Source: a virus. Taken from it: a DNA stretch of 64,000 nucleotides. The translations under genes and the position numbers were made by a program. The stretch spans positions 1 to 64,000 of the IMG/VR virus record IMGVR_UViG_3300031548_000002; one strand, given 5' to 3'. How positions within the stretch are numbered: position 1 is the first letter of the stretch; the number at the start of each line of letters is the position of its first letter. Of this stretch, positions 10,417 through 55,142 are shown in pieces. The notes under the pieces were generated by a model. The model saw nothing but the letters and a program-made list of their open reading frames with translations, was not told the DNA's origin and did not search any database.

Positions 10417-10679
10417 CCGCCGCGGGCCGCACGTCGCACGTCCTCGATGCGAAGTACCTGGCCCGGCGCATCAACGAGCGCAAGGAGCTGCTGGGCCTCA
10501 CGTGGCACGAGGTCTGCGCGGAGGTCGGCGTCACGCACGACGCGCTGTGGCGGATCCGCTCGCTGGCCCGCACGCCGCGCGGCGACACACTGGTCTCGAT
10601 CCTCGTGTGGCTGGGCGTCACGGACGTCTGGGACTTCACGGTGGAGCGCGGCGCCGAGAGTCTCGCCGCCGATGTTTGA
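10413..10679 (+). CDS. XRE/Cro-like HTH protein
   Basis: GLTWHEVCAEVGVTHDALWRI...PRGDTLVSILVWLG. Confidence 0.7.
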   Translation: MTAAGRTSHVLDAKYLARRINERKELLGLTWHEVCAEVGVTHDALWRIRSLARTPRGDTLVSILVWLGVTDVWDFTVERGAESLAADV

Positions 10680-10743
10680 ACCGGGTCGCCCGCGGGTACA
10701 CTAGTGAGGCGGAGTCGGTGCGACCGCGCCGACGCGCTAAGGA

Positions 10744-11064
10744 GTGATTCGTGTGAGCGGCACCGGCTGGCAAGCGTGGTACGTGGCCAAGCACCCAGAC
10801 GGCTCGTGGAACTTCGGCGTCACCACGAAGGTCGTGGTGATGCAGTGGAACGCGGTGGAGGTCACCGGCGGCCTGGGCGTCGAGGTCCACGGCTTCGTCG
10901 TCGACCCCACGAGGTTCGGCGAGACCGGCGGGCTCGTGCCCGCGGGGACCGTCGTCATCCCGGGCTACGACGGCCCGCACAACGACCAGTACTTCGTCAC
11001 GTACCTGCGCGACGACGAGGACGACGAAGAGTGCTCGCGCATCGCGAGCGTCATGACCTCGTAG
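10744..11064 (+). CDS. hypothetical protein
   Basis: AAGGAG RBS; 106 aa. Confidence 0.6.
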   Translation: MIRVSGTGWQAWYVAKHPDGSWNFGVTTKVVVMQWNAVEVTGGLGVEVHGFVVDPTRFGETGGLVPAGTVVIPGYDGPHNDQYFVTYLRDDEDDEECSRIASVMTS

Positions 11065-41741: not shown

Positions 41742-42325
41742 TGGAGTGGCGACTGTTCGAAGAGGGCACGACGCCGTACGTCAGCACCGCCGAGTTTCAC
41801 CGGGACCGCGAGCGCGCGCCGCACCTGGAGCAGGCGCACCACCGGGCGCGCATGGAGCTCGCGCTGGAGTGCGTGCGCGCCGCCGAGAACTGGTACGCCA
41901 AGCCGACGCTGTGCGACCTCGGCGCGGGCGACGGTGGGTTCCTGACGCTGGTCGCGCCGTACGTAAGTCGCGCGTGGGGCTACGACCTCTGTCCCGCGAA
42001 CGTCGCGGGTGCGGCGGAGCGCGGAGTGAACGTCGAGCTGCGCGACTTCACCGCGGAGAAGCCCGAGCTGGGCACGGTGGTGACGACGCTGGAGGTCTTG
42101 GAGCACGTCGCCCGCCCGCACGCGCTGGTGAAGGCGCTGTGGCAGGCGGGCGTCCGGGTGCTGATCGCATCATCACCGGTGGATGAGACGGAGGCATCTC
42201 ACGACGCGGTTCACGCGTGGGCGTGGGACATGGACGGCTACCGCGCGCTCGTTGAGAGTGGCGGTTGGACCGTCGTACGGCACGAGACGGCCGGTCGGTA
42301 CCAGGTGGTACTCGCTCGCAGGTAG
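41741..42325 (+). CDS. class I SAM-dependent methyltransferase
   Basis: CDLGAGDGG, GYD, LEVLEH. Confidence 0.85.
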   Translation: MEWRLFEEGTTPYVSTAEFHRDRERAPHLEQAHHRARMELALECVRAAENWYAKPTLCDLGAGDGGFLTLVAPYVSRAWGYDLCPANVAGAAERGVNVELRDFTAEKPELGTVVTTLEVLEHVARPHALVKALWQAGVRVLIASSPVDETEASHDAVHAWAWDMDGYRALVESGGWTVVRHETAGRYQVVLARR

Positions 42326-42333
42326 GAGTAGCG

Positions 42334-43998
42334 GTGGGTTGGCGGAGAACCTCATCGGCGCGACCGCGCGCACGCGTGATGCGCGGTGACCGCGAGAGTA
42401 CGGCGCTCGCGGTCGTCGAGAGCCCCGCGCTGTCGCGCCGCGAGCACCGCGCGTTGCAGCGCGCCGCTAAGAAGAACGCGAAGAAGGAGTCGCTGACCGC
42501 GGCTGCCGCGATCATGCGGTCGGACACGCGCGGCACCGTCATCCAGAAGAAACGCTGGCAGGATGAGGCGTGGGACAACTGGCGTGGTAACGGTGAGCTC
42601 TGGTACGCGACCGAGTGGAAGGGCAACGCGGTCTCACGCGTGCGGTTGAAGGCCGCGAAGATCGTGCCCGGCTCGGATGAGCCGGAGATCGTGGACGACG
42701 GTCCGGCGGCGGAGCTTATGGAGCAGCTCGCTGGTGGCATCGGCGGCCAGTCCGTGCTCATGAAGAGCTTCTCGATCAAGCTCGACATCGCGGGCGACTC
42801 GTATTTCATCATGTACGTGGATGAAGAGGGAGTTACGCACAGCGGGGTGTACTCCGCGGACGTCGTGCGCAAGGACACCAGCGGTGGTTTCTCACTTCAG
42901 CTGGATGAGTCCGGGCCAGTGCCGCTGCCGCGCGAGTCGCTGGTCGTCCGCATCTGGAACCCCGACGAGCAGTACCCGTGGCTGGCCATCTCGCCGACCG
43001 AGCCCGCGCTCAGCGTGCTGCGCGAGGTCGACCTCTACAACCGAAAGATCATCACCGAGCTGACGGCGCGCATCGCCAGCAACGGCGTGTGGCTGATTCC
43101 CGATGAGGTGACGTTCCCCGTCCGCGACGAGTTCTCGGACGCGCCGGACCCGTTCATCTCCGAGTGGATCGACGTCGCATCGAAGGCGATCCAGAACCCG
43201 GGAAGTGCCGCGGCCGCACTGCCGATTCCGATGCGCGTGCCCGCGGACTTCATCGACAAGTTCGAGCACGTCCGCTTCTCGGACAACGTCGTCAAGGAGA
43301 CGTTGGACGGTCGCGACCGCGCGCTGAGCCGACTCGCGAAGATGCTCAACGTTCCGGCTGAAGTTTTGACTGGCATGGGAGACGTGAACCATTGGGGGTC
43401 TTGGAAGATCGAAGACTCCGCGATCAAGATTCACGTGCTTCCCACGGTAGAAACGATTTGTCGTGGTCTCACGGTGGGGTACCTGCAGCCCGCCCTCTCC
43501 AATCAGAGCCTCGAAGAGTTCGACGATAATGACGTCGCGGATGACGCGAATGGCGAGCAGGCGCAATACGTCGTCTGGTATGATGCGTCCGAGCTGGAGA
43601 AGCAGCCCGACCTCGGCGAGCGCGCCGTCCAGCTCCACGACCGCGTCGCGATCTCTGACGAGGCACTGCGCCGCGCGACCGGCTTCGATGACTCCGACGC
43701 GCCGACCGACGAAGAGCGCAACGCGCAGATCCTGAAGAAGCTCGCGTACAGTGGCCAGCAGGTCACCAACGCGTACGAGGAGCTCACCGGAACTCCGGTG
43801 GCCGGCGTCGGGGACGAGGAATCCACGACCTCGCCCGAAGCGAACCTCCCCGCACCGGCGCCGGCCGCCGGGCCTGCGCCCACGGTGGTAAGACCACCGA
43901 GCACGCGCACCGAAGTACCGTCCGGTGAAAGTGGCGGACCTCCGGGCGCGAGCGTCGACACCACCTTCCTCGAGATCGTTGAGAGGACGCGCACGTGA
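42334..43998 (+). CDS. portal protein
   Basis: WQDEAW, SRVRL, RIWNP, GMGDVNHW, WYDASEL; sits upstream of MuF, protease and capsid genes. Confidence 0.85.
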   Translation: MGWRRTSSARPRARVMRGDRESTALAVVESPALSRREHRALQRAAKKNAKKESLTAAAAIMRSDTRGTVIQKKRWQDEAWDNWRGNGELWYATEWKGNAVSRVRLKAAKIVPGSDEPEIVDDGPAAELMEQLAGGIGGQSVLMKSFSIKLDIAGDSYFIMYVDEEGVTHSGVYSADVVRKDTSGGFSLQLDESGPVPLPRESLVVRIWNPDEQYPWLAISPTEPALSVLREVDLYNRKIITELTARIASNGVWLIPDEVTFPVRDEFSDAPDPFISEWIDVASKAIQNPGSAAAALPIPMRVPADFIDKFEHVRFSDNVVKETLDGRDRALSRLAKMLNVPAEVLTGMGDVNHWGSWKIEDSAIKIHVLPTVETICRGLTVGYLQPALSNQSLEEFDDNDVADDANGEQAQYVVWYDASELEKQPDLGERAVQLHDRVAISDEALRRATGFDDSDAPTDEERNAQILKKLAYSGQQVTNAYEELTGTPVAGVGDEESTTSPEANLPAPAPAAGPAPTVVRPPSTRTEVPSGESGGPPGASVDTTFLEIVERTRT

Positions 43999-46151
43999 CG
44001 CGCATCACGATGGTCTCCGAGGCTGAGCTGCAAGCTGCCGCCGACGCGCTCGCCACGGACATGGTCGAGACGCTGCGTGCGGTTCTACGGCGCGCGGGCC
44101 AGGCGCTGGGCCAGACTATCACGGCGGCCGCCGAGCGGCCCGAGCGGGTCGTTCTAGACCAAGCTGAGACGGCCTGGCTGGACGCCGTCAACGGCGACTT
44201 CTTTCCGCGCGTTGTGAACGCCTACGTCTCCGCCGCAGAGCGCGCTCACCTGCAGCTCGTCGACGTCTATGGCGGCGCGCCGGCCGCCGTGCCATTCGTG
44301 AGCCAGTCGGCGGCGGTCGCGTACCTCACGGACTCCGGCAACCGCATGATGAACGTCACGGAGGGCACGTGGGCGCGCGCTCGAGCGCAGCTCATTGAGG
44401 GTTTTCAGGCGGGCGAGTCGATCCAGCAGCTGACCGCTCGCCTGCAGTCGGTGAGCGACTGGAGCGAGTCGCGCGCCGCGACCGTGGCCCGCACTGAGAT
44501 CATCTCCGCGTCCAACGCGGGCGCGCTGGCCGAGGTGCAGGCGACCGGTGCGATCGCGAAGAAGACGTGGCTCGCCACCAAGGATTCGCGCACGCGTGAG
44601 GCGCACCGTAAGGCTGACGGCCAGACGGTTAGCGTCAACAACGTGTTCATCGTGGACGGTGAGGCGCTGGACTTCCCGGGCGACCCGCAGGGTGAGCCGG
44701 AAAATGTGATCAACTGCAGATGTACTTTGTCACTTGACGTCAAAAAGTCGGAGCTGTCCGTCGCGCTGGAAGACCTGCCCGACGTCACCGACGAGTTCGA
44801 CCCAGCGGACTTCGTCGACCTGGACTCGCTGGTCGCGGCGGCGTCGCGCATTGAGCTCGCGCCGCGTAAGAAGTACGACGAGTCGAAGCACAAGCGCGGT
44901 AAGGGTGGACGCTTCGCACCTAAGTCTGGCGGTGGCGGCGGTAAGATCGACTATAAGAAGAAGACCGCCAAGAAGGCGCCCGAGCCGGAGCCCGCCGAAC
45001 CGGCGAAGAAGATCAGCTACAAGAAGACCACCGCTAAGAAGACGGCCGCGCCTCCGACGCCGCCGCCCGCGCCGACTCCGCCGCCCGCTAAGAAGGCCGC
45101 ACCGGCGAAGACGACCGGCAAGAAGATCGCGCCCACCCCGCCTCCGCCGCCGGTCAAAGAACCGCCCGCGCCGGAGATCGAAGAGCTGCCCACACCGGAG
45201 CCGGCTGCACCCGGCGGCATCGAGCCGAGCGCGCCGATCGTGCAGGTGACGCCCGAGGTGCGGGACGCGCTGGACCTGTCGGAGGGCGACTTCGCGGAGA
45301 CGGGTAGCCGTGTGCTGGTCGGCGACCGTGCCGGAACGGTGCGCCACTCGACGACCAACGACGCGGATCTCAGTGATGAGCTCTGGGTGCAGTTCGACGA
45401 TGACCCGACGCGCGTCCAGCGCATGGCCGCGACGGACGCTGAGGTGATCGACGCGGCGGATGACGACTACGCGGACATCACGCGGTCGCCCTTCCCAGCG
45501 GACGTCGTCGAGAACCTGCCCGCGGGCGCGCCGTTGGGCGATGAGGACGAGAATGAAGCTGACGAGGACGCGGGCGACGACGGTGCGGAGCTGCCGTTCG
45601 CGGTCACGCCCGGCTTCGAGCCTCTCACCGAGTCGGATGCCAACGACATGCAGGACGAGATGCTGGCGCGCGAGCCCTGGTCCGTGGCGCAGGAGGAAGC
45701 ACTCACCGTGTACAGCGGCGACGCGTACACAGAGATGAACGGCTGCCTGCGGTTCGATGAGGGCTGCACGGATGACATCGAGTTCGACAACCGGCAGGCG
45801 TCCGCGGCGATGCGTCCCACGACGCGCGCGACGACGGTCACGCGCGGCGCGAACTTCCAGTCGCTGGGCATCAACAACGCGGCACAGCTGGAGTCGCTGG
45901 TCGGCGCCACGGTGAGTGACCACGGCTTCACCAGCACATCGATCGATCCGAACTCCGCGTTCGCCGGCGACGTCCGGCTGCAGATCGAGGTGCCCGAGGG
46001 TGCGCGCGCCGCGTACATCGACCAGATCAGCCAGAACGCGGGCGAGCGTGAGCTGCTGCTCGACAGAGGCACGCGCTTCGAGGTGCTGGAAGTCCAGATG
46101 CCTGCGGAAGAAGGCATGCCCGCCGCGGTGCGAGTGAGGGTGGTTGTGTAA
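43995..46151 (+). CDS. MuF-like minor head protein fused to a VIP2-like ADP-ribosyltransferase (ART1)
   Basis: MuF motifs ARTE, KTWLAT.DSRTREAH, PGDP, INCRC; ART motifs VTRG, GFTSTS, ERELLL. Confidence 0.9.
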   Translation: MTRITMVSEAELQAAADALATDMVETLRAVLRRAGQALGQTITAAAERPERVVLDQAETAWLDAVNGDFFPRVVNAYVSAAERAHLQLVDVYGGAPAAVPFVSQSAAVAYLTDSGNRMMNVTEGTWARARAQLIEGFQAGESIQQLTARLQSVSDWSESRAATVARTEIISASNAGALAEVQATGAIAKKTWLATKDSRTREAHRKADGQTVSVNNVFIVDGEALDFPGDPQGEPENVINCRCTLSLDVKKSELSVALEDLPDVTDEFDPADFVDLDSLVAAASRIELAPRKKYDESKHKRGKGGRFAPKSGGGGGKIDYKKKTAKKAPEPEPAEPAKKISYKKTTAKKTAAPPTPPPAPTPPPAKKAAPAKTTGKKIAPTPPPPPVKEPPAPEIEELPTPEPAAPGGIEPSAPIVQVTPEVRDALDLSEGDFAETGSRVLVGDRAGTVRHSTTNDADLSDELWVQFDDDPTRVQRMAATDAEVIDAADDDYADITRSPFPADVVENLPAGAPLGDEDENEADEDAGDDGAELPFAVTPGFEPLTESDANDMQDEMLAREPWSVAQEEALTVYSGDAYTEMNGCLRFDEGCTDDIEFDNRQASAAMRPTTRATTVTRGANFQSLGINNAAQLESLVGATVSDHGFTSTSIDPNSAFAGDVRLQIEVPEGARAAYIDQISQNAGERELLLDRGTRFEVLEVQMPAEEGMPAAVRVRVVV

Positions 46152-49100
46152 TGGCCAACGGCGAAAAGCTCACGCCGCTGACGGACCCGAGCAACGTCCA
46201 GTGGGTCATCGAGCGCCCGGGTGATGCTGCCGCGACGACGGCTGCGGTCACGCCGCGCCCGAAGATGGCCGCATACTCCGCGCTGGTTGCGGCGACCGCG
46301 GTCAGCCTCAAGAAGAAGTTCGACGAGTCCAAGGTCAAGCGTGGGCCCGGTGGCAAGTTCGCGAAGAAGGCTGGCGGGGGATCGTCGGCGCCCGCGCCCG
46401 CAAAGAAGACCTCCGCGGCGCCGATCGCGTCCGGTAAGAAGATCACCAACAAGGTCATCTACGGGAAGCACGCCAACGGCTCGATCATCCAGTCCACCGA
46501 CGGCCAGCACCGCATGGTCTACAATGCGGCGGGCAACAACTGGACGGTCCAGCGGCGCACGTCCGACGGCGGCTGGGAGGTCGTCGAGGTCCTCGGCAAG
46601 GGCGCCGCGTATAAGAAGGCGAACGCGCTCAGCTCTTCGTGGGGTGAGCTGCGCGCGGACGATGATGAGGAGCCTGACGTCGCGACCGCGGCGACTGTGG
46701 ATGCGGATGCCGGTGACGCCCCTGACGCAGGCACGACAACGAGTAATGCCTCCGCGGGACACGGCGCATTCGCGGACGGCTGGAACGACCTGTCGGCGTC
46801 ACCACTGTCGGCGTATCAGATGGCGAGTCTGCACATCGAGTCGGCATTCTCCAATGAAGATGCTCTGAATGCGGGTCTCGCCGCGCAGCACGTCGCCAAT
46901 TTGGCGAACAAGTACGGCGTCACGCCTGAGCAGGCGCTGGCCATCATCGACCATGAACGCGGCGACAGCGTGTACTCGGATCGCGTTCGCGCTCACCTCG
47001 CGGGCCAGCCATTTCCGCCGTCCACCCTGACCGTACCTCCGGGAACGCCGTTGGGCTCGGCGAAGAAAATCGCCGCGAAGAAGACTGCGGCGAAGAAGGT
47101 GGCGCCGCCCGCGGTCGCGCCGTCGCCGGCACCGGCGAAAAAGGCCGCTAAGAAGATTGCGTACACAAATCCCATGGCGTCCGCACTCGCGGGCGAGGAT
47201 GTGCCTCTCGCGCAGCTGGAGGCGCAGCAGGCCGCATCACAACAGATTCGAGATGCTCTTCACAACTACAACAATGCATTGGCGGATCCCTCACTGACCG
47301 TCACGGACACGAGTAGCTACGCGTCCATCTTGTCGATTCTTAAGAAGCAGTATAAGAATAAGTACGGTGTGGCGTGGTCGCCGTCACATCACGCTGCGGT
47401 CGTCGGGACGTACCAGAAGCAGCTCGCTAAGAGTGGACCCGCCGTAGCTCCAACGTCGGAACCGGCGACGCCCGCTCCGACGAAGAAGCCCGCGAAGTCG
47501 AAGACGTTCGCGAAGGGTGACTCGGTGATCGGACCGACCGGCGCGACGGGCGAGGTCGTCGCCGTTGCGGAGACCACCGGCACGAAGATCAAAATGTCGA
47601 AGGTGCAGTTTCCCGACGGTCAGGTGGGCTGGTTCAAGAACGACGAGCTCTCTGACGCCACGACGGCGTCCAGTCCCGCCGCGGCGGATCGCCTGGACGG
47701 CGCGCAGAAGGGCGTCATTCCGGGAGCTTACGTCTACACGCCAGGAGGTGACATCGCGACCGTCGTAGGCCAGGGGCCGCCTAACGCGTATGGTGATCCG
47801 CAGGTCACGTTCCAGACGGTGAGTGGATCAACGGGCACACTCGCCGCCGGGGACTTGCGACCACTTACGCAGTTTCAGATCGACTCGCTGACCAACGCGC
47901 CCGTCGACGGCGCGTACGTCAGCACTCCCATGGGTGACGGTTACGTCGTAGGTGCACCGTTCGCCAACGCGATCGGTAATCCATCGATCACCGTTGACGT
48001 CAACGGAACGCCCACGAAGTTCAACGTCAACGACGTGACGCCCGCGACGGCACCAACGCCTGCGCCCGCGGCTCCGGTGATCACGCCCGCGACGCCCGCC
48101 GCAGCTCCGGCACTGTCGTACGACGCCGACGGCGTTCCGATTCTTGACGACGCGCAGCAGGCAATGCTCCAGAGTCACTTCAAGGATGCGGGCGTCAACT
48201 GGTACAGCGACACAACGTCGATCTTTGACGCCGCGTACGCCGCGTCCCAGGCGACGGGCATGTCCATGGAGGATGTGCTCAAGTACGCCGATGCGAACTA
48301 CCACAGCTCGGCGAAGTTTGGCGGCAAGCCGTTTCAGGCCAAGGTTGAGAAGTGGGCGAAGTCTTCTAAGGGCAAGGCTCACGTTCAGGCGACGCTGGGC
48401 ACCGCGCCGACCGGGGCGACGCCGACGTCGCTGGTGCCGGTTCGCACACCACCCGTTCCGACGCCGCAGCCGCCGCCCGCGCCCGCGAACATCACCGCGA
48501 CCAACTACGGTTCGACGAGTCAGCCTCACGGTGACTTCTTTCCACTTTCCAGCGGTTACACCACGTTGGATCCCGATGAAGCGCTCGAGCTGCAGCGTGA
48601 GATGGAAGCACAATCGGGTGCACTTGATCCGCGGGAAAGTAGCGCACTCACATACTATACCAGCGAGTCTTACCGTGAAATGAACAACTGCTTGCGGCGT
48701 GGTGAAGACTGTAACGCGGGTGTGATGTATCATAACGGCACGCGCTACACGTCGTACCAGACCAGCGAGTACGCGACGCAGGGAATGCGACCACTTACGC
48801 AGAACGTCACCCTGTACCGCGGCACGAACATCGAGTTCGCGCCGGACCTCAACCTGACGAGCGCGCACGACCTCGAGAATCACGTCGGATACATGGCACA
48901 GGACTTCGCTTTTTCCAGCGCATCGGTGAACCCTACCACCGCGCACAGCTGGGGTGCGGGCCAGTACAACGCGGTGATCATGCAGATCGAGGTACCCGCC
49001 GGCTACCCCGCCACGTACGTCGACCACATTTCCGATAACCCGGGCGAGTATGAAATGGTGCTGCCGCCGGGAACGCGCTACCGCATTGTGGAAGTTAAGC

Positions 49101-49153
49101 CGTCGCGCAGCATTTCGGACGGCGTCATTGTTCGAGTGGAGGTCATTCCGTGA
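46151..49153 (+). CDS. multidomain protein with C-terminal ADP-ribosyltransferase (ART2)
   Basis: LYRG, FSSAS, EYEMVLPPG; YREMNNCLR. Confidence 0.88.
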   Translation: MANGEKLTPLTDPSNVQWVIERPGDAAATTAAVTPRPKMAAYSALVAATAVSLKKKFDESKVKRGPGGKFAKKAGGGSSAPAPAKKTSAAPIASGKKITNKVIYGKHANGSIIQSTDGQHRMVYNAAGNNWTVQRRTSDGGWEVVEVLGKGAAYKKANALSSSWGELRADDDEEPDVATAATVDADAGDAPDAGTTTSNASAGHGAFADGWNDLSASPLSAYQMASLHIESAFSNEDALNAGLAAQHVANLANKYGVTPEQALAIIDHERGDSVYSDRVRAHLAGQPFPPSTLTVPPGTPLGSAKKIAAKKTAAKKVAPPAVAPSPAPAKKAAKKIAYTNPMASALAGEDVPLAQLEAQQAASQQIRDALHNYNNALADPSLTVTDTSSYASILSILKKQYKNKYGVAWSPSHHAAVVGTYQKQLAKSGPAVAPTSEPATPAPTKKPAKSKTFAKGDSVIGPTGATGEVVAVAETTGTKIKMSKVQFPDGQVGWFKNDELSDATTASSPAAADRLDGAQKGVIPGAYVYTPGGDIATVVGQGPPNAYGDPQVTFQTVSGSTGTLAAGDLRPLTQFQIDSLTNAPVDGAYVSTPMGDGYVVGAPFANAIGNPSITVDVNGTPTKFNVNDVTPATAPTPAPAAPVITPATPAAAPALSYDADGVPILDDAQQAMLQSHFKDAGVNWYSDTTSIFDAAYAASQATGMSMEDVLKYADANYHSSAKFGGKPFQAKVEKWAKSSKGKAHVQATLGTAPTGATPTSLVPVRTPPVPTPQPPPAPANITATNYGSTSQPHGDFFPLSSGYTTLDPDEALELQREMEAQSGALDPRESSALTYYTSESYREMNNCLRRGEDCNAGVMYHNGTRYTSYQTSEYATQGMRPLTQNVTLYRGTNIEFAPDLNLTSAHDLENHVGYMAQDFAFSSASVNPTTAHSWGAGQYNAVIMQIEVPAGYPATYVDHISDNPGEYEMVLPPGTRYRIVEVKPSRSISDGVIVRVEVIP

Positions 49154-49599
49154 CGACACCTGCAAGCGGTGAGGTAGAAGAGCGTGGCCCGACGGTAAGC
49201 TCACTGGTGGACCCCACGTCCGTGGAGTGGGTGTCACTGGTGCCCGTCTCCGAAGAGAATCCGTTCGATGAGGGTGAGCTGGATGAGGACGGCCTGACCG
49301 AGTCCGAGTTCGACATGATCTTTCGGCGACCCGCGGCGAGCGTTCCGATCAACCTCATCGCCGCAGTGGACGTCACAGAGAGTCCGCGCGAAGAGCTGCA
49401 GTCAGGCATGCCACGGCAGCTGAAGGACTACTGGCTGCGCGGCGAGGGCGCGGCGCAGATTCGGTGGGGCACCAAGGGTTCGTTCACCCGCTGCGTCCGC
49501 GAGCTGCGCGAGCACTTCCCCACGGGGACCGAGGGCCTGTGCGCGAACCTCTACCACGAGGCAACGGGGCACTGGCCCGGTGAGGATCGTGACAAGTAG
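49150..49599 (+). CDS. head-module protein: acidic N-terminal peptide plus YW...IRWGT...C...GLCA domain
   Basis: GTGA coupling to ART2; LVDP peptide; LIAA site. Confidence 0.75.
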   Translation: MTTPASGEVEERGPTVSSLVDPTSVEWVSLVPVSEENPFDEGELDEDGLTESEFDMIFRRPAASVPINLIAAVDVTESPREELQSGMPRQLKDYWLRGEGAAQIRWGTKGSFTRCVRELREHFPTGTEGLCANLYHEATGHWPGEDRDK

Positions 49600-50948
49600 T
49601 GGAGACGCTCGCACCGCGTAGACGCTTCGATGAGTCGAAGGTCAAGCGCAACAAGGGACGCTTCGCGAGGAAGGCGGTGGGCGCGCTCTTTCGCCCGCCG
49701 CCCGCGCTGGTGCGCGGCACTCCGGAGGCCAACGTCTTTCGACGTCACAACGACGGCGACGTCACGCACGTGTCGGACGACGGCAGCCAGCGGATGGTCT
49801 ACGATGAGGTCACCGACCAGTTCGATCAGCAAGTGCGTCAGCCCGACGGCTCGTGGCAGTCGATCGGTAAGCGTGGTAAGCTTCAGGCGTACCTACTAAC
49901 AAAGCTCGGCTGGCGCGCAGGTGAACAGGAAGATCAGGACGCACCCGCGCTGGCCGTTGACGCGGTGGACGTCGATTCGCCGGACGTTAGTGCACCGGAT
50001 GCGAGTGCATCAGCGACACACTCTTCCATTGCGACGCCCGCGGACGACATCAGTGCACTGACGCCCGAGCAGATCCGTAACGCGTACAACGCGGTCAACG
50101 CCGCGGGCAGCGTGCTCAGCGACCCGTACACACCGCCGGAAGATCTCGCGCAAGTGGCGTCGAACGTCGCTGACGAGCAGTCGCTGACGCCGCTGCAGGT
50201 GCTGCGCGCCGTCGACGCGCACGAGGCATCTCTCTACGGTGATCCCAACACGAATCGCATTGAGAATCGCGTCGTTCAGCACCTAGCGGGTGCGGACTTT
50301 CCCGCACCGGGTGGTCCACTTACGACGGACGGGCCCGCACCGGCACCACTTCCCGCGACCGTGGTCGCGCTACCGCACCAAGATACCGCGCCATTTCCGA
50401 TAAGTGACGACTTCCCCACGCGAACCGACACTGATATGGCGCGCATTCAACGTGAGATGGAAGCGCAGAGCGGCGCGCGAACTCCCGCGGAGATCGCGGC
50501 GATTCGCGACTACTCCGTCACGGCGTACCAGGGCATGAATGAGTGCCTACGAACGGGAAGTGGCTGCGATCCCAATGTGATTGATCGCAATAATGAGCTT
50601 GAAAGTGCGATGCGTCCCATCACCGAACCGGTGACCGTCTTCCGACGCATGATGCTGGATAACCTACCAGGTGTGACGTCGGCCGCTGACCTGCAGTCGC
50701 TGGTCGGCTCAGACATCACAGACGCCGGGTTTACCAGTACGTCGCTGGACCCCGCGCAGACTCAATTGTTCGGCAACGTGCGACTTCAGATCGCGGTGCC
50801 TACCGGAACGAGGGCCACCGTTCCGGGCGCACACAGCGTACACTCTGGCGAGCAGGAGGTCATCTTGGCGCCCGGAACGCGTTATCGCGTCATCGACGTT
50901 GACACCTCGGGCACAACGCCCGCTGTGCAACTGGAGGTAGTGCTGTGA
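49599..50948 (+). CDS. ADP-ribosyltransferase (ART3)
   Basis: VFRR, GFTSTS, EQEVILAPG; YQGMNECLR. Confidence 0.88.
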   Translation: METLAPRRRFDESKVKRNKGRFARKAVGALFRPPPALVRGTPEANVFRRHNDGDVTHVSDDGSQRMVYDEVTDQFDQQVRQPDGSWQSIGKRGKLQAYLLTKLGWRAGEQEDQDAPALAVDAVDVDSPDVSAPDASASATHSSIATPADDISALTPEQIRNAYNAVNAAGSVLSDPYTPPEDLAQVASNVADEQSLTPLQVLRAVDAHEASLYGDPNTNRIENRVVQHLAGADFPAPGGPLTTDGPAPAPLPATVVALPHQDTAPFPISDDFPTRTDTDMARIQREMEAQSGARTPAEIAAIRDYSVTAYQGMNECLRTGSGCDPNVIDRNNELESAMRPITEPVTVFRRMMLDNLPGVTSAADLQSLVGSDITDAGFTSTSLDPAQTQLFGNVRLQIAVPTGTRATVPGAHSVHSGEQEVILAPGTRYRVIDVDTSGTTPAVQLEVVL

Positions 50949-53164
50949 CCACGCCCATCGATGTGAACACTAGTGAGTTCACGCCACTCACTGACCCGAA
51001 CAATGCAGTGATGACGATTATCCCCACCGAAGATGAGGTCATTGAGGAGATCACCGAAGATGAGCTCGCCGCAGTTGGTGACACCTTCACCAGTGGCATG
51101 ATCGCTCTCATTCCTACTGCTGCCAATGCTGAACGTCTCTACGCGGGCGAAGATGATTTTGGCGAGTTGCCTGAGGACTTGCACACCACGGTGATCTACT
51201 TGGGCGACATCACAAGTATGGACGAGCGAACGTTTAGCACGATCGTGGACGAGCTCGTGAACATCGCCGATGAGGAGCTTGGGCCGGTCGTCGCGGAGGG
51301 GTTCAATGTCGCGCTCTTCAACCCACACACTGACGAGCGTGACACATGTGTGACGCTGGGTCTGAGCGGATCAACGCTTCACCTGCTCTGTAAGAAGATC
51401 CGCGACCGGATCATTAAGAAGATCGCCGGTGAGAGTTATCAGATTCCCGAGCAGCACGAGCCGTGGATTCCGCACGTGACGCTCGCGTACACCGAGGACT
51501 ACTCCACGGTGGAGCGCCTGGCAGACCGCACCGGCGACATCACATTTGATCGTGTGCGCTTGGCCCTGGGTGATGATGTCTACGACTTCGATCTCAGAGA
51601 CACGTTCAAGCCAGTGGATCTAGCTGACGTTGAGGACGACGCGGACTACGAAGAACTTAGCGACGGCGAACTCTTTGGTGAGCTCTTCGCGGGCGCGGCA
51701 GTGTCGGAGATCGACCGAGACTCCACGATGGAATATAATGATCGCGAAGGTGAGGTGATGAACGTGACCGACACGGTCGAAGAGGCCGCCGAGGTGGAGG
51801 TCTCCGAGTCCGAGCCCGGCGCGTGGTCCGGCGTCCTGATCGTCGAGGGCGTTGAGTCGGGCGACGGTCGCATGTTCGCGGAGGGCTCGCTCAAGTCCGC
51901 GCCACTGCCGCTGCCGCTGATGTGGCAGAAGCAGACCGCCACGGGGCACGAGACCGCCGTGCAGGCGGGTCGCATCGATGAGGTGTGGCGCGAGGGCAAC
52001 CAGATCTGGGGACGCGGAGTCTTCGACCTGGAGGGCGACGACGGCTACGAGGCGTACCGGCAGGTGGCGCAGGGCTTCCTGCGCGGCGTGTCCGGCGACG
52101 TCGACTCGGTGAAGGACTCTGACGTCGAGCTCGTCTTCCCGAAGTCCGGCGGTGCGGAGAGTGCGGAGGGAGCCGACGGCTTCGGCGACCTCTTCGCGGC
52201 GCCCGAGCTGACGATCTTTCACCGTGGCCGGCTGCGCGGCGCGACGCTCGTGCAGTTTCCCGCCTTCGTGGAGGCGTCCATCGCATTGGACGGTCAGACG
52301 CTCGACACGGACGAGACCGCGATCGAGGAGGGCCCGCACTCAGAGTTCGCCGATGACGACGCGACCGAGCTTGCGATCGAGAGCGCCGGTGAGTCGGTGG
52401 ACGCTGAGGACGAGGAGGAGATCGGTCACCTCGCTCGGCGCGCCGAGCTGACCGCCTGCGGCTGCACCGATGAGGCGCCGCCGACCGACTGGTTCGAGGA
52501 CCCGAAGCTGTCCGGACCGACGCCGCTCACCGTCACGGAGGACGGTCGGATCTTCGGCCACGCCGCCGTCTGGGGAACCTGCCACACCGGCTTCTCCGGC
52601 ACGTGCGTGACGCCGCCGCGCGAGCGACTCCACGAGTACTTCCTACTGGGCGAGACGCTCACCGCGGACGGATCCACCGTTGCCACGGGCTCCATCACAC
52701 TGGGAACGGGTCACGCGGCGACCGGCGGCAAGCTCACCGCACTGCAGGCGATCGATCACTACGACCACACCGGCACCGTCGTGGCGGACGTCGCGACGGG
52801 TGAGGATAAGCACGGCCTCTGGTTCTCCGGCGCGCTGCGGCCGAAGCTGTCGCCGTATAAGCTGCGCGCACTCCGCGCCGCGAAGCTGTCCGGCGACTGG
52901 CGCCGCTTCGGCAATGGGCTGCGCCTCATCGCGCTGCTGGCGGTCAACGTGCCGGGCTTCCCGGTGCCGCGCGTCAAGGCCGGCGCGCGCCGTGGGGTTC
53001 AGACGTCGCTGGTGGCCGCGGGCGTCAACCCGTACGGCCCGGGCGACCAGCAGAGCGCGGTCGAGCAGGAGGCGCTGCAGGCCATCGTGGCGAGCCTGAA
53101 GCAGCGCATCGGACGCGACGACAAGTCGCGGCTGGATGAGATCCGCAAGCGGATTGGGAGGTAG
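50945..53164 (+). CDS. 2H phosphoesterase fused to capsid maturation protease
   Basis: HxT motifs LHTTV and PHVTL; ESGDGR, PLPLMW, GH, GVSGD, PAF; C-terminal GHAAVW...LSGDWR...VNVPGF. Confidence 0.82.
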   Translation: MTTPIDVNTSEFTPLTDPNNAVMTIIPTEDEVIEEITEDELAAVGDTFTSGMIALIPTAANAERLYAGEDDFGELPEDLHTTVIYLGDITSMDERTFSTIVDELVNIADEELGPVVAEGFNVALFNPHTDERDTCVTLGLSGSTLHLLCKKIRDRIIKKIAGESYQIPEQHEPWIPHVTLAYTEDYSTVERLADRTGDITFDRVRLALGDDVYDFDLRDTFKPVDLADVEDDADYEELSDGELFGELFAGAAVSEIDRDSTMEYNDREGEVMNVTDTVEEAAEVEVSESEPGAWSGVLIVEGVESGDGRMFAEGSLKSAPLPLPLMWQKQTATGHETAVQAGRIDEVWREGNQIWGRGVFDLEGDDGYEAYRQVAQGFLRGVSGDVDSVKDSDVELVFPKSGGAESAEGADGFGDLFAAPELTIFHRGRLRGATLVQFPAFVEASIALDGQTLDTDETAIEEGPHSEFADDDATELAIESAGESVDAEDEEEIGHLARRAELTACGCTDEAPPTDWFEDPKLSGPTPLTVTEDGRIFGHAAVWGTCHTGFSGTCVTPPRERLHEYFLLGETLTADGSTVATGSITLGTGHAATGGKLTALQAIDHYDHTGTVVADVATGEDKHGLWFSGALRPKLSPYKLRALRAAKLSGDWRRFGNGLRLIALLAVNVPGFPVPRVKAGARRGVQTSLVAAGVNPYGPGDQQSAVEQEALQAIVASLKQRIGRDDKSRLDEIRKRIGR

Positions 53165-53340: not shown

Positions 53341-53423
53341 CTACTTCACGGTGATTTGCCGAGATCAACACCGTGGTGTACAATGCGCGTAAGGTTCATC
53401 AACGTGAAGCAAGAGGAAGCCGC

Positions 53424-55142
53424 ATGAATGGGTATCAGGGTCTGCCGGAGGACCTCTCCGCGCTGAGCGATGATGAGCTTCGCGCGCTGGAGGAGGCTGC
53501 GGTCGCGGCCTTCGACGAGGCCGCCGACCCGGAGAACGACGTCTCGGCCGAGGTAGTCGCGCAGGCCGCGCAGCTCGCCGACGACATCGACGCCATCCGC
53601 GCCGAGATCGCCTCGCGCGAAGAGATGGCACTGCAGCACGCCGCCGACCGTGAGGCGCTGCAGTCGCGCGTGCACGGCCGGGGCGAGGCACCGACCGAGG
53701 CCGCCGAGGAGACCACGCAGGAACTGGCCACGGAGCTCGCCGTGGAGGAAGGCGAGGAAGTGGACGAAGACGAAGTCGTCGCGGGTGGGCAGCACTACAG
53801 CCCGGCGCGGACGACGCCCCGCAACGCGACCGGGAAGCGCAAGCTCAACGTCTCGCTGTCGGCGATCCAGGCGCGCGCGCCGAAGGTTGAGGTTCCCAAC
53901 ACCCCGTTGCGTTCGACGCTGGTCGCGTCCGCGGACATCCCGGGTTACGCCCAGGGCTCCCGGCTCGACTCGATGTACGACCTGGTTTCTGCGGCGCACA
54001 ACCGTGTGCGCACCGTCGGCACCACGACGCGCGGTGATGACGCCCCGCGGTACACCGTCGCGTCGATGAACCGCAGCTTCAAGTACACGCTCGACCGGCA
54101 GGCCACACCGCAGCAGATCTCCGAGGTCCTGACCGCCGCGACCAACGTCAGCGAGCTCGTCGCCGCCGGCGGCTGGTGCGCCCCGTCCGAGATCTCGTAC
54201 GACCTCTTCAACATCGTCTGCGAAGACGGCATGCTGGACCTGCCGACCGTGGGCATCAACCGCGGTGGCATCCGCTTCCCGATCTCCCCGGACTTCTCCA
54301 GCCTCTCGGGCAACCCGGCCCTCTGGACCTGGACCGAGACGCAGGACATCGCCGCCGTCACCGGCACTGACCAGTCGGGCGTCAAGACCTGCGGTCGCGT
54401 CCCGTGCGCGACGTTCTCTGAGGAGCGCCTCGCGTGCGACGGCGTTTGCCTCACCGTCGGCAACCTCATGGACGACGCGTACCCGGAGCTCATTGCGAAC
54501 CACATGAAGCTCCTGATGGCCTTCCACGCGCACAAGATGAACTTGTCGCGCATCAATAAGCTGGTGGCCGCGTCCGTCGCGGTGTCCGGCACGGTGGGCA
54601 TGGGCGCCGTCGGCGAGTCCGTCATCAACAACGTCCTCGGGGCGCTGGAGCTGCAGGCTCGCGACTACCGCGAGAAGTTCGCGATGTGCGAGGATGCCGT
54701 CCTCGAGGTCGTGCTGCCGCGCTGGATCCTCGACATGATGCGGTCGGACATCCGTCGCCGCACCGGCGTCGAGCTGCTCTCGGTCGCGGACTCGTACATC
54801 GAGGGGCTCTTCGATGCCCTCGACATCCGCATCCAGTTCGTCGGCGACTGGCAGGTGCGCACCACGGGCTTCCCGGGCGGTACCGGAACGCTGCTGGCCT
54901 GGCCGACGCAGGTGCAGGCGCTGATGTTCGCGCCGGGCACCTTCGTTCTCGGCGAGGGTCTCACGCTGGACCTCGGCGTCATCCGCGACTCGGTGCTCAA
55001 CCAGACGAACGACTACACCGCGGCGTGGATGGAAGAGTGCTGGCTGATCGCCAAGCTCGGTCACGAGTCCCGTCTTCTCACGATCAACGTCTGCGCCAAC
55101 GGCCGGACCGGTGCCGCCGACATCACCGCCTGCGGTCTCTGA
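53424..55142 (+). CDS. major capsid protein with N-terminal scaffold-like coiled coil
   Basis: acidic helical N-terminus; LVAAGGWCAPSE, RGGIRF, DLGVIRDS..NQTND. Confidence 0.85.
   Translation: MNGYQGLPEDLSALSDDELRALEEAAVAAFDEAADPENDVSAEVVAQAAQLADDIDAIRAEIASREEMALQHAADREALQSRVHGRGEAPTEAAEETTQELATELAVEEGEEVDEDEVVAGGQHYSPARTTPRNATGKRKLNVSLSAIQARAPKVEVPNTPLRSTLVASADIPGYAQGSRLDSMYDLVSAAHNRVRTVGTTTRGDDAPRYTVASMNRSFKYTLDRQATPQQISEVLTAATNVSELVAAGGWCAPSEISYDLFNIVCEDGMLDLPTVGINRGGIRFPISPDFSSLSGNPALWTWTETQDIAAVTGTDQSGVKTCGRVPCATFSEERLACDGVCLTVGNLMDDAYPELIANHMKLLMAFHAHKMNLSRINKLVAASVAVSGTVGMGAVGESVINNVLGALELQARDYREKFAMCEDAVLEVVLPRWILDMMRSDIRRRTGVELLSVADSYIEGLFDALDIRIQFVGDWQVRTTGFPGGTGTLLAWPTQVQALMFAPGTFVLGEGLTLDLGVIRDSVLNQTNDYTAAWMEECWLIAKLGHESRLLTINVCANGRTGAADITACGL

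Follow-up and report, generated by a model that had tools for sequence, protein, structure and literature searches.

The window analysed here comprises 64,000 nucleotides (positions 1 to 64,000) of the IMG/VR virus record IMGVR_UViG_3300031548_000002, which has a length of 91,363 bp and is graded complete by CheckV. The G+C content is ~67%. The window harbours five consecutive head genes from 43995 to 53164, named P0001 to P0005 in the following. Three of them end in an ADP-ribosyltransferase (ART) domain, and the gene after each ART opens with a related short peptide, the leader. Leaders have a length of 45-73 aa and a conserved N-terminal core, joined in some of them by a second short helix; a linker, in most cases acidic, and an [LV]xA[AS] site come next. 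The genes and leaders are the following:

43995..46151, plus strand: P0001, MuF head protein with the C-terminal ART1 (Pfam Phage_Mu_F, E 1.6e-20; ADPrib_exo_Tox, E 8.6e-20)
46151..49153, plus strand: P0002, cargo protein 2, 1000 aa (ADPrib_exo_Tox, E 1.7e-17)
46151..46294, plus strand: leader 1, on P0002, with core KLTPLTDPSNVQWVIERP (46166-46219), linker, and ALVAA (46280-46294)
49150..49599, plus strand: P0003, 149 aa, leader 2 followed by D6439 (phrog_6439 match)
49150..49365, plus strand: leader 2, on P0003, with core VSSLVDPTSVEWVSLVP (49195-49245), acidic linker, and NLIAA (49351-49365)
49396..49599, plus strand: D6439, the phrog_6439 helical domain of P0003 (E 9e-25; AlphaFold2 (AF2) predicted local distance difference test (pLDDT) ~95)
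49599..50948, plus strand: P0004, cargo protein 3 with the C-terminal ART3 at 50478-50906 (ADPrib_exo_Tox, E 9e-16)
50945..53164, plus strand: P0005, 2H/LigT phosphoesterase and prohead protease (Pfam 2_5_RNA_ligase2, weak; phrog_859/18402)
50945..51073, plus strand: leader 3, on P0005, with core EFTPLTDPNNAVMTIIP (50975-51025), acidic linker, and DELAA (51059-51073)

P0001 is organised as MuF domain, SLVAA site (44826-44840), tag (44865-44924), linker, and ART1 (45678-46100). In P0002 the leader is followed by a KKKFDESK tag (46310-46369), small beta and helical domains, and ART2 (48620-49105). P0004 begins directly with an RRRFDESK tag (49617-49673) and has no leader; the gene upstream encodes D6439 and not an ART. 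P0001, located downstream of the portal gene, has no leader either. The absence of the peptide from these two genes without an upstream ART (starting at 43995 and 49599) had been claimed in the initial annotation, made from the sequence alone, and can be read directly from the sequence.

The initial annotation had also described three coupled head genes ending in ART domains, and Pfam ADPrib_exo_Tox indeed matches the C-termini of P0001, P0002, and P0004 (rounded E-values of 9e-20, 2e-17, and 9e-16). These are the only ART matches in the whole 91-kb record, and all three belong to PF03496, with 58-71 bits against a curated cut-off of 23.4. The columns of the catalytic Arg, S-x-S, and E-x-E are invariant in alignments of six and of nine sequences. 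Judged by their sequences, the three domains are ARTs of the R-S-E (C3/VIP2/Alt-like) family with intact catalytic motifs. In a profile search of the PDB, VIP2 was the top match (E 4e-28), CDT/iota and C3-type enzymes were also near, and the type VI secretion system toxin Tre1 was detectable (6dre_B, E 8e-15). Two cysteines (NxCLRx4C; ~45720-45760, 48680-48720, and 50520-50560) are kept without exception by all six ARTs in the window and in its syntenic relative L004, and are absent from the more distant ARTs of the loci L045, L011, and L044. In the ART tree, ART2 of the window is not the ortholog of ART2 in L004 and relatives; the ARTs of the window clade are paralogs which duplicated along with their downstream sequence. 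The phage has no Macro or ADP-ribosylhydrolase (ARH) gene, that is, no other antidote of those types.

The related peptides that had been noted at the start of the genes after the ARTs carry L[TV]DP at 46178, 49204, and 50987. Among the window genes this motif occurs only at these three sites, each within the first 20 residues, and the three other six-frame matches in the window all lie in unrelated frames. The leader consensus is [LV]x[LV][TSV]DPx[NS][VA]x[WM], then the linker, and then the [LV]xA[AS]-type site. The linker of leader 2 holds a second conserved element, GLTESEFDMIFRRP (49291-49332), and the L004 ortholog of leader 3 reads LTAVTDPDNVDLVL..EELTAAG. Also present, as described before, are the L-x-A-A-like sites after the peptides, SALVAA (residues 43-48), NLIAA (68-72), and DELAA (39-43). 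The three proteins that carry the leader are unrelated: one combines tag, beta-repeats, and ART, another contains the phrog_6439 domain, and the last is a 2H/LigT phosphoesterase with prohead protease.

At the three ART junctions, stop and start codons overlap (TAATG, GTGA, and GTGA), and the codons for the last ART strand contain a GAGG-like Shine-Dalgarno sequence. We consider this an ordinary operon coupling, because the junction between the portal and MuF genes overlaps likewise. A fusion of ART and leader by frameshift or readthrough was discarded: the overlaps are plain and the frames differ, and no slippery sequence was seen by eye, which did not include a formal search for frameshift signals. 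Ordinary coupled overlaps, together with the joint duplication of window-clade ARTs and their downstream sequence, would agree with a leader that is a relic of cassette duplication or a nucleotide-level re-initiation signal, with no role of the peptide. The conservation of the leader argues against this. In orthologs of P0002 the leader core shows identities of 94%, 72%, and 67%, versus 43%, 40%, and 53% for the ART domain (94%/43% in L058 and 72%/40% in L004) and 24-59% for the linker, so that the core is the best-conserved protein segment of P0002. The codons of L-T-D-P vary synonymously between loci, D-P is invariant in 13 leaders whose ARTs share only 27-33% identity, and the conserved part lies 25-75 nt past the start codon. 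A strong purifying selection on the leader is supported by these comparisons, and an explanation without a role of the peptide is most improbable.

Related loci (named L plus a number) were gathered from GenBank records and by searching with the D6439 family, the ART, and the kinase-like domain, and the ~60 gathered loci were scanned with local hidden Markov models (HMMs) for ART, leader, and D6439. The proposed tie between the peptide and an upstream ART holds throughout: at fourteen out of the fourteen leader junctions with visible context, the leader directly follows an ART stop. The junctions correspond to the window (three), L004 (three), L058 (two), L059, L063, L010/L011, L045, and L044, and represent ~5 lineages. 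Four kinds of host proteins carry the leader, namely tag-ART cargo, D6439, LigT-D6439-protease, and tag-kinase-like cargo. L010/L011 possess a portal-ART fusion and an HK97-type protease, and the next gene encodes MSSLSDPKNFAVVW-DDDELAAA, then D6439. In L045 a MuF...ART gene is followed by LTALTDPENIGWVPVDEGLTDDEAYGLL...LVAA...LVAAA-LigT-D6439-protease, and in L044 an ART is followed by MTTAKDRIRLDDPMELLVQP-TGDDEE-AVTAA, the cargo tag, and a PI3/PI4-kinase-like domain. The link is exclusive, as the leader was found in none of ~35 non-redundant loci where D6439 or LigT-protease hosts are present and no ART precedes them. The host domains are located there inside MuF polyproteins, fused to HK97-type proteases, alone, or right after the portal (Kithara).

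A regular expression of the motif gave 29 matches in the 882,637 six-frame residues of 62 loci. Twelve of them lie within 150 nt past an ART stop, versus ~0.07 expected, and two more follow ART fragments at contig ends; this enrichment is an illustration and not an independent test, since the expression was derived from some of the same sequences. A search with tblastn of the leader regions against GenBank phages gave no match, a scan of genome contigs returned two polyprotein prophage loci only, and the sole match of a DNA pattern for TDPxNVxWV in IMG/VR was an already known relative. Small open reading frames (ORFs) that follow ARTs in Gretchen, London, Janeemi, and JackieB were considered as distant leader homologs, which was not supported: they gave no HMM match and showed a vague resemblance only.

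Nearly all of 40 database homologs of P0003 possess a leader and a [LV][TAV]A[SA] site ahead of D6439. Compared with P0003, the homolog P0020 is 85% identical in D6439 and 41% in the leader, and for P0009 the values are 72% and 65%. Hosts with the leader subtype TPLTDPDNVMWVVE.PA include tag-ART proteins (L004, P0053, P0060) as well as D6439 proteins (P0031, P0044). The occurrence on unrelated hosts and the discordance between leader and host-domain similarity support a modular leader. The leader profile was also searched against 1.84 billion representative proteins (E<=1e-3). Six out of the 14 matches were true, all starting at residue 1 (within residues 1-31), and three of these six are leader-only proteins of 52-63 aa, the 52-aa one (P0057) being encoded on a 52.6-kb contig. 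Separate searches for leader-only proteins of 44-140 aa and for the leader in longer proteins found none. The remaining profile matches are false positives in unrelated repeat proteins, mostly similar to tetratricopeptide repeats (TPR; ..AERLAA[ST]DPxNAxWQRDLS..), with large unrelated proteins among P0049 and P0054-P0059. From these TPR-like cross-matches, the DPxN core may be a helix-capping turn rather than a strand.

The leader structure was also approached with models. In the AF2 model of P0003 the leader reached moderate confidence only. Foldseek of the P0003/D6439 model against the PDB gave no match, and a profile of P0003 and its homologs gave no meaningful match to PDB sequences, so that no PDB chain with sequence similarity to the leader was found.

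The tag [KR]3[FY]DESKxKRG..G[RK]FAxK occurs exactly three times, once per ART protein. It is located right after LVAA in P0001 and P0002, and at the very N-terminus in P0004; therefore, if cut at LVAA, all three ART cargos would share nearly the native N-terminus of P0004. A literature search on the DESK motif string returned nothing relevant. Apparent equivalents of the tag head cargo modules in other loci, such as FDPNQPRD..GRW (L044), KHxDHDQSxHGNW (L017, L018/L021), and KHVRDxE[YF]WGxPxGTPI (Chidiebere, GMA6). L017 encodes a polyvalent protein of 1917 aa (L017:1627-7374) with five ART-like domains, one ParB-like segment, and one acetyltransferase-like segment, each preceded by the KHxDHDQSxHGNW tag. 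In both P0002 and P0004 the tag is directly followed by a shared small beta domain (..G.H.NG....S.DG.QRMVY....; 46450-46600 and 49720-49880), and several SH3-like beta repeats can be seen in residues 458-625 of the P0002 AF2 model.

In L044 the cargo genes form a chain, and all of them carry the tag in the variant FDPNQPRD..GRW. The one that follows D6439 (g1) carries the tag only, and the gene after the ART (g3) carries an LxDP leader, AVTAA, and the tag. Two further genes, which follow PI3_PI4_kinase-like domains (Pfam), share another N-terminal module, ..DTGAA..ALAxWSNGYL (blastp E 3e-7; L044:8241-8480 and 10429-10760), followed by an xTAA site and the tag. This second module, which has no PHROG family, is also present in L073, where the gene of a MuF...ART...kinase-like polyprotein of 1301 aa overlaps, by GTGA, with the next ORF, which has 67 aa (L073:5552-5752) and is homologous to the module (E 3e-10). 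In this small sample the partner type follows the toxin type, with the LxDP leader after ARTs and the WSNGYL module after kinase-like effectors. The window contains its own internal control: after D6439 only the tag is found (P0004), and after an ART both leader and tag (P0002). By this pattern, the type of N-terminal module is set by the upstream effector and not by the carrier protein, the argument from the kinase module drawing on two loci. Since the module type in L044 and L073 follows the effector, the leader tracks the upstream effector and not the needs of its host. The occurrence of the kinase-type module both fused and as a free small ORF is, by analogy with polymorphic toxin systems (PMC5576092), a signature of immunity-like partners, and modules that follow the effector would fit poorly with a general capsid-targeting signal or with a tether acting for the downstream protein.

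In phage T4, Alt and the internal proteins carry a capsid-targeting sequence (CTS) which is cut by the prohead protease gp21. The leader could correspond to such a general signal, binding the scaffold or capsid and loading its own host, with the link to ARTs as an accident of gene order. Like a CTS, it is short and N-terminal and is followed by a recurrent motif that is a probable prohead-protease site. In other phages head cargo shares leaders whatever the neighbour, and in Chidiebere and GMA6 VRD.E[YF]WG.P.GTPI is found on the ART protein as well as on the one that follows. However, the leader is not present irrespective of its neighbour: P0004, L044 g1, and the ~35 hosts without an upstream ART all lack it, and in L044 the module type follows the type of the upstream effector. 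The [FY]DESK tag, occurring once per ART cargo, appears to fit a general cargo mark better. Because the leader tracks the upstream effector, a cognate immunity-like partner is favoured, and a general targeting signal is considered quite unlikely.

The genes flanking the five head genes, which encode the portal and the major capsid protein, are located as follows:

42265..43998, plus strand: portal protein (phrog_776, E 6e-106), the true start probably lying downstream of the first TTG
53373..55142, plus strand: major capsid protein (phrog_777, E 1e-139)

The N-terminal ~185 aa of the capsid protein are coiled, acidic, and scaffold-like, and end at STLVAS|ADIPG (53913-53930); between the gene for the protease and that for the capsid protein, a scaffold gene of its own is not apparent. 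The 2H/LigT domain of P0005 (50945-51700) scored below the Pfam cut-off, matched a PHROG RNA ligase (3e-26), and is fused to MuF in relatives. With megablast the whole region gave no match to GenBank phages, and hence no close relative; the head proteins are 31-42% identical to their counterparts in Arthrobacter, Streptomyces, Gordonia, and Microbacterium phages. This actinobacterial phage, with its large genome of 91 kb, looks lytic and not like a prophage.

The motif found after the leaders recurs at other places where a prohead protease would act. In relatives with MuF, LigT, D6439, and protease in one polyprotein, the domain junctions read [LVI][TVA]A[AS] (MellowYellow, BabyGotBac), and the boundary of the capsid scaffold carries the motif both in the window (STLVAS|ADIPG) and in L045 (PVTASAGG). 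P0005 itself contains ELTACG (52445-52462) just ahead of the protease domain and SLVAAG (53006-53023) near the protease C-terminus, and a site of the SLVAAG type is kept in MellowYellow, Tardus, and Kithara. Residues 72-83 of P0003, at and just past the predicted cut site, are disordered in the AF2 model. Since the motif is found at the scaffold boundary, the protease ends, and the polyprotein junctions, and given this disorder, [LV]xA[AS] is likely the cleavage specificity of the prohead protease.

The same polyproteins suggest a further explanation, in which an ART and its stop codon split an ancestral MuF-LigT-D6439-protease polyprotein, and the leader rejoins the pieces non-covalently via the preceding ART, without inhibiting it, so that all parts enter the prohead jointly and are released by the protease. 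In relatives (MellowYellow, BabyGotBac, L005) these domains form a single polyprotein with [LV]xA[AS] at the junctions, L045 looks just like such a polyprotein interrupted by ART, stop, and leader, and all leader hosts are capsid-internal proteins. Nevertheless, the chain is broken, with no adaptor, at the junctions D6439|P0004 in the window and D6439|g1 in L044, and D6439 and LigT-protease have no leader where they stand alone or after the portal (L008, Kithara). P0002 and L044 g3 are already tagged as cargo. The second module cannot be a host tether, because in L073 it is a free ORF with no host attached and nothing to tether. A leader acting purely as a tether is therefore regarded as unlikely, although less so than a general targeting signal.

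The initial annotation had proposed that the peptide is a cognate ART inhibitor, fused to the next gene and removed by the prohead protease. This mechanism is partly supported and is the leading candidate. From the sequence comparisons, we give about even chances to the leader being an ART-directed partner which is removed by the protease, with inhibition as its most likely action. Binding, inhibition, cleavage, packaging, and injection are steps that we infer, and they would proceed as follows. The leader would be the cognate partner module for the ART encoded just upstream, and the stop-start overlap would yield ART and leader close together and in roughly matched amounts. The leader would then bind the ART domain during late expression and prohead assembly, most likely keeping the enzyme inactive and perhaps escorting it. 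The prohead protease would cut at [LV]xA[AS] and free the host protein, and the ART cargo would be left starting with the [KR]3[FY]DESK tag, ready for ejection with the DNA.

A more general form of this proposal, which we put forward tentatively and with more doubt than the mechanism itself, is that virion-delivered toxin-like enzymes are kept off by effector-specific inhibitor modules in the form of cleavable leaders, and that prohead assembly arms them via the protease. If true, head operons would follow a grammar of cognate N-terminal module, cut site, cargo tag, and effector, gene after gene, with different modules for ARTs and for kinase-like effectors, which could also occur as free small ORFs.

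Several observations weigh against the leader as an ART inhibitor. In the AF2 model of full-length P0002 (m37b02d95049c), residues 1-109 have pLDDT<50 and the ART is confident; the leader is disordered and not docked on the ART of the same protein. This single-chain docking is a weak test, given a non-cognate pair and a shallow alignment. Approximately 15 ART-terminated genes, including some on non-actinobacterial contigs, have no recognisable leader downstream, and none was recognised after the C-terminal ARTs of Gretchen, London, Janeemi, Zanella, JackieB, prophiFSQJ01-1, Chidiebere, and GMA6. The internal ARTs of the L017 and L073 polyproteins have no such partner either, and their location rules out a requirement for a free ART C-terminus, which had been considered. 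Since these polyprotein ARTs and the C-terminal ARTs from GenBank have no such peptide, inhibition is not a general need; either the ARTs of L017 and L073 are inactive until processed, or inhibition is not essential. The leader-followed ARTs may share one origin, so that part of the association between ART and leader could be the descent of one cassette. An ART-type leader in free-standing form has not yet been seen adjoining an ART.

How phages avoid self-poisoning by the enzymes which they pack and inject is largely unaddressed, and the assumed antidotes of MuF toxins are mostly unidentified small ORFs. If the proposed mechanism is true, it would couple enzyme activation to capsid maturation in a testable way, offer a sequence handle for packaged effectors and their partners in metagenomes, and provide compact natural peptides that bind or inhibit ARTs of the C3/VIP2 type. 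The [LV]xA[AS] motif is a concrete predicted specificity for a widespread head protease of actinophages.

In MuF polymorphic toxins, a putative immunity ORF sits right downstream of the toxin (Jamet et al. 2017, PMC5576092; Zhang et al. 2012, PMC3482391). Similar to these, a toxin-type domain lies here at the C-terminus of a head protein, and the candidate partner is encoded immediately downstream, translationally coupled by stop-start overlap at all 14 junctions, and inherited as a cassette. However, the candidate partner is not a separate ORF but a leader of 45-73 aa fused to the next capsid-internal protein and followed by a protease-site motif, the arrangement is chained three times, and the phage looks like a 91-kb lytic phage and not a prophage.

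T4 Alt is an ART packaged in the head (PMC5512222). As in T4, an ART would be carried in the head and injected, and N-terminal leaders would be removed by the prohead protease, here as a prediction from sequence. In contrast to the neighbour-independent CTS, which is on the cargo itself, the leader is carried by the protein encoded after the ART, and cargo without a preceding effector lacks it. Tre1 of Serratia proteamaculans (PDB 6DRE) is blocked by an N-terminal extension of the immunity protein Tri1, which occludes the active site (PMC8120803). The resemblance consists in an R-S-E ART which matches the profile (E 8e-15) and is neutralised in part by the N-terminal extension of a neighbour-encoded protein, the latter being a feature of Tri1. 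Unlike the leader, Tri1 is a dedicated, uncleaved immunity protein with an ADP-ribosylhydrolase domain, and no such hydrolase is present in this phage.

Phages and conjugative elements encode polyvalent proteins in which effector domains, such as ART and 2H phosphoesterase, are joined to MuF, portal, or protease, and for which packaging, processing, and injection are predicted (Iyer et al. 2017, PMC5512222). The proteins of L017 and L073 are such polyvalent proteins. In the window, by contrast, the chain is divided among coupled genes, and the breaks carry effector-specific leaders. In polyketide synthases and nonribosomal peptide synthetases, docking domains act in a comparable way, as a short N-terminal element of the next subunit recognises the C-terminal part of the previous one. 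To our knowledge nothing is removed by a protease in that case, and the likeness is an analogy only, since the protein families are unrelated to leader and ART. What is new at this locus is the effector-following leader, as a variation on the MuF toxin with its downstream antidote, on the cleavable leaders of the T4 type, and on polyvalent proteins.

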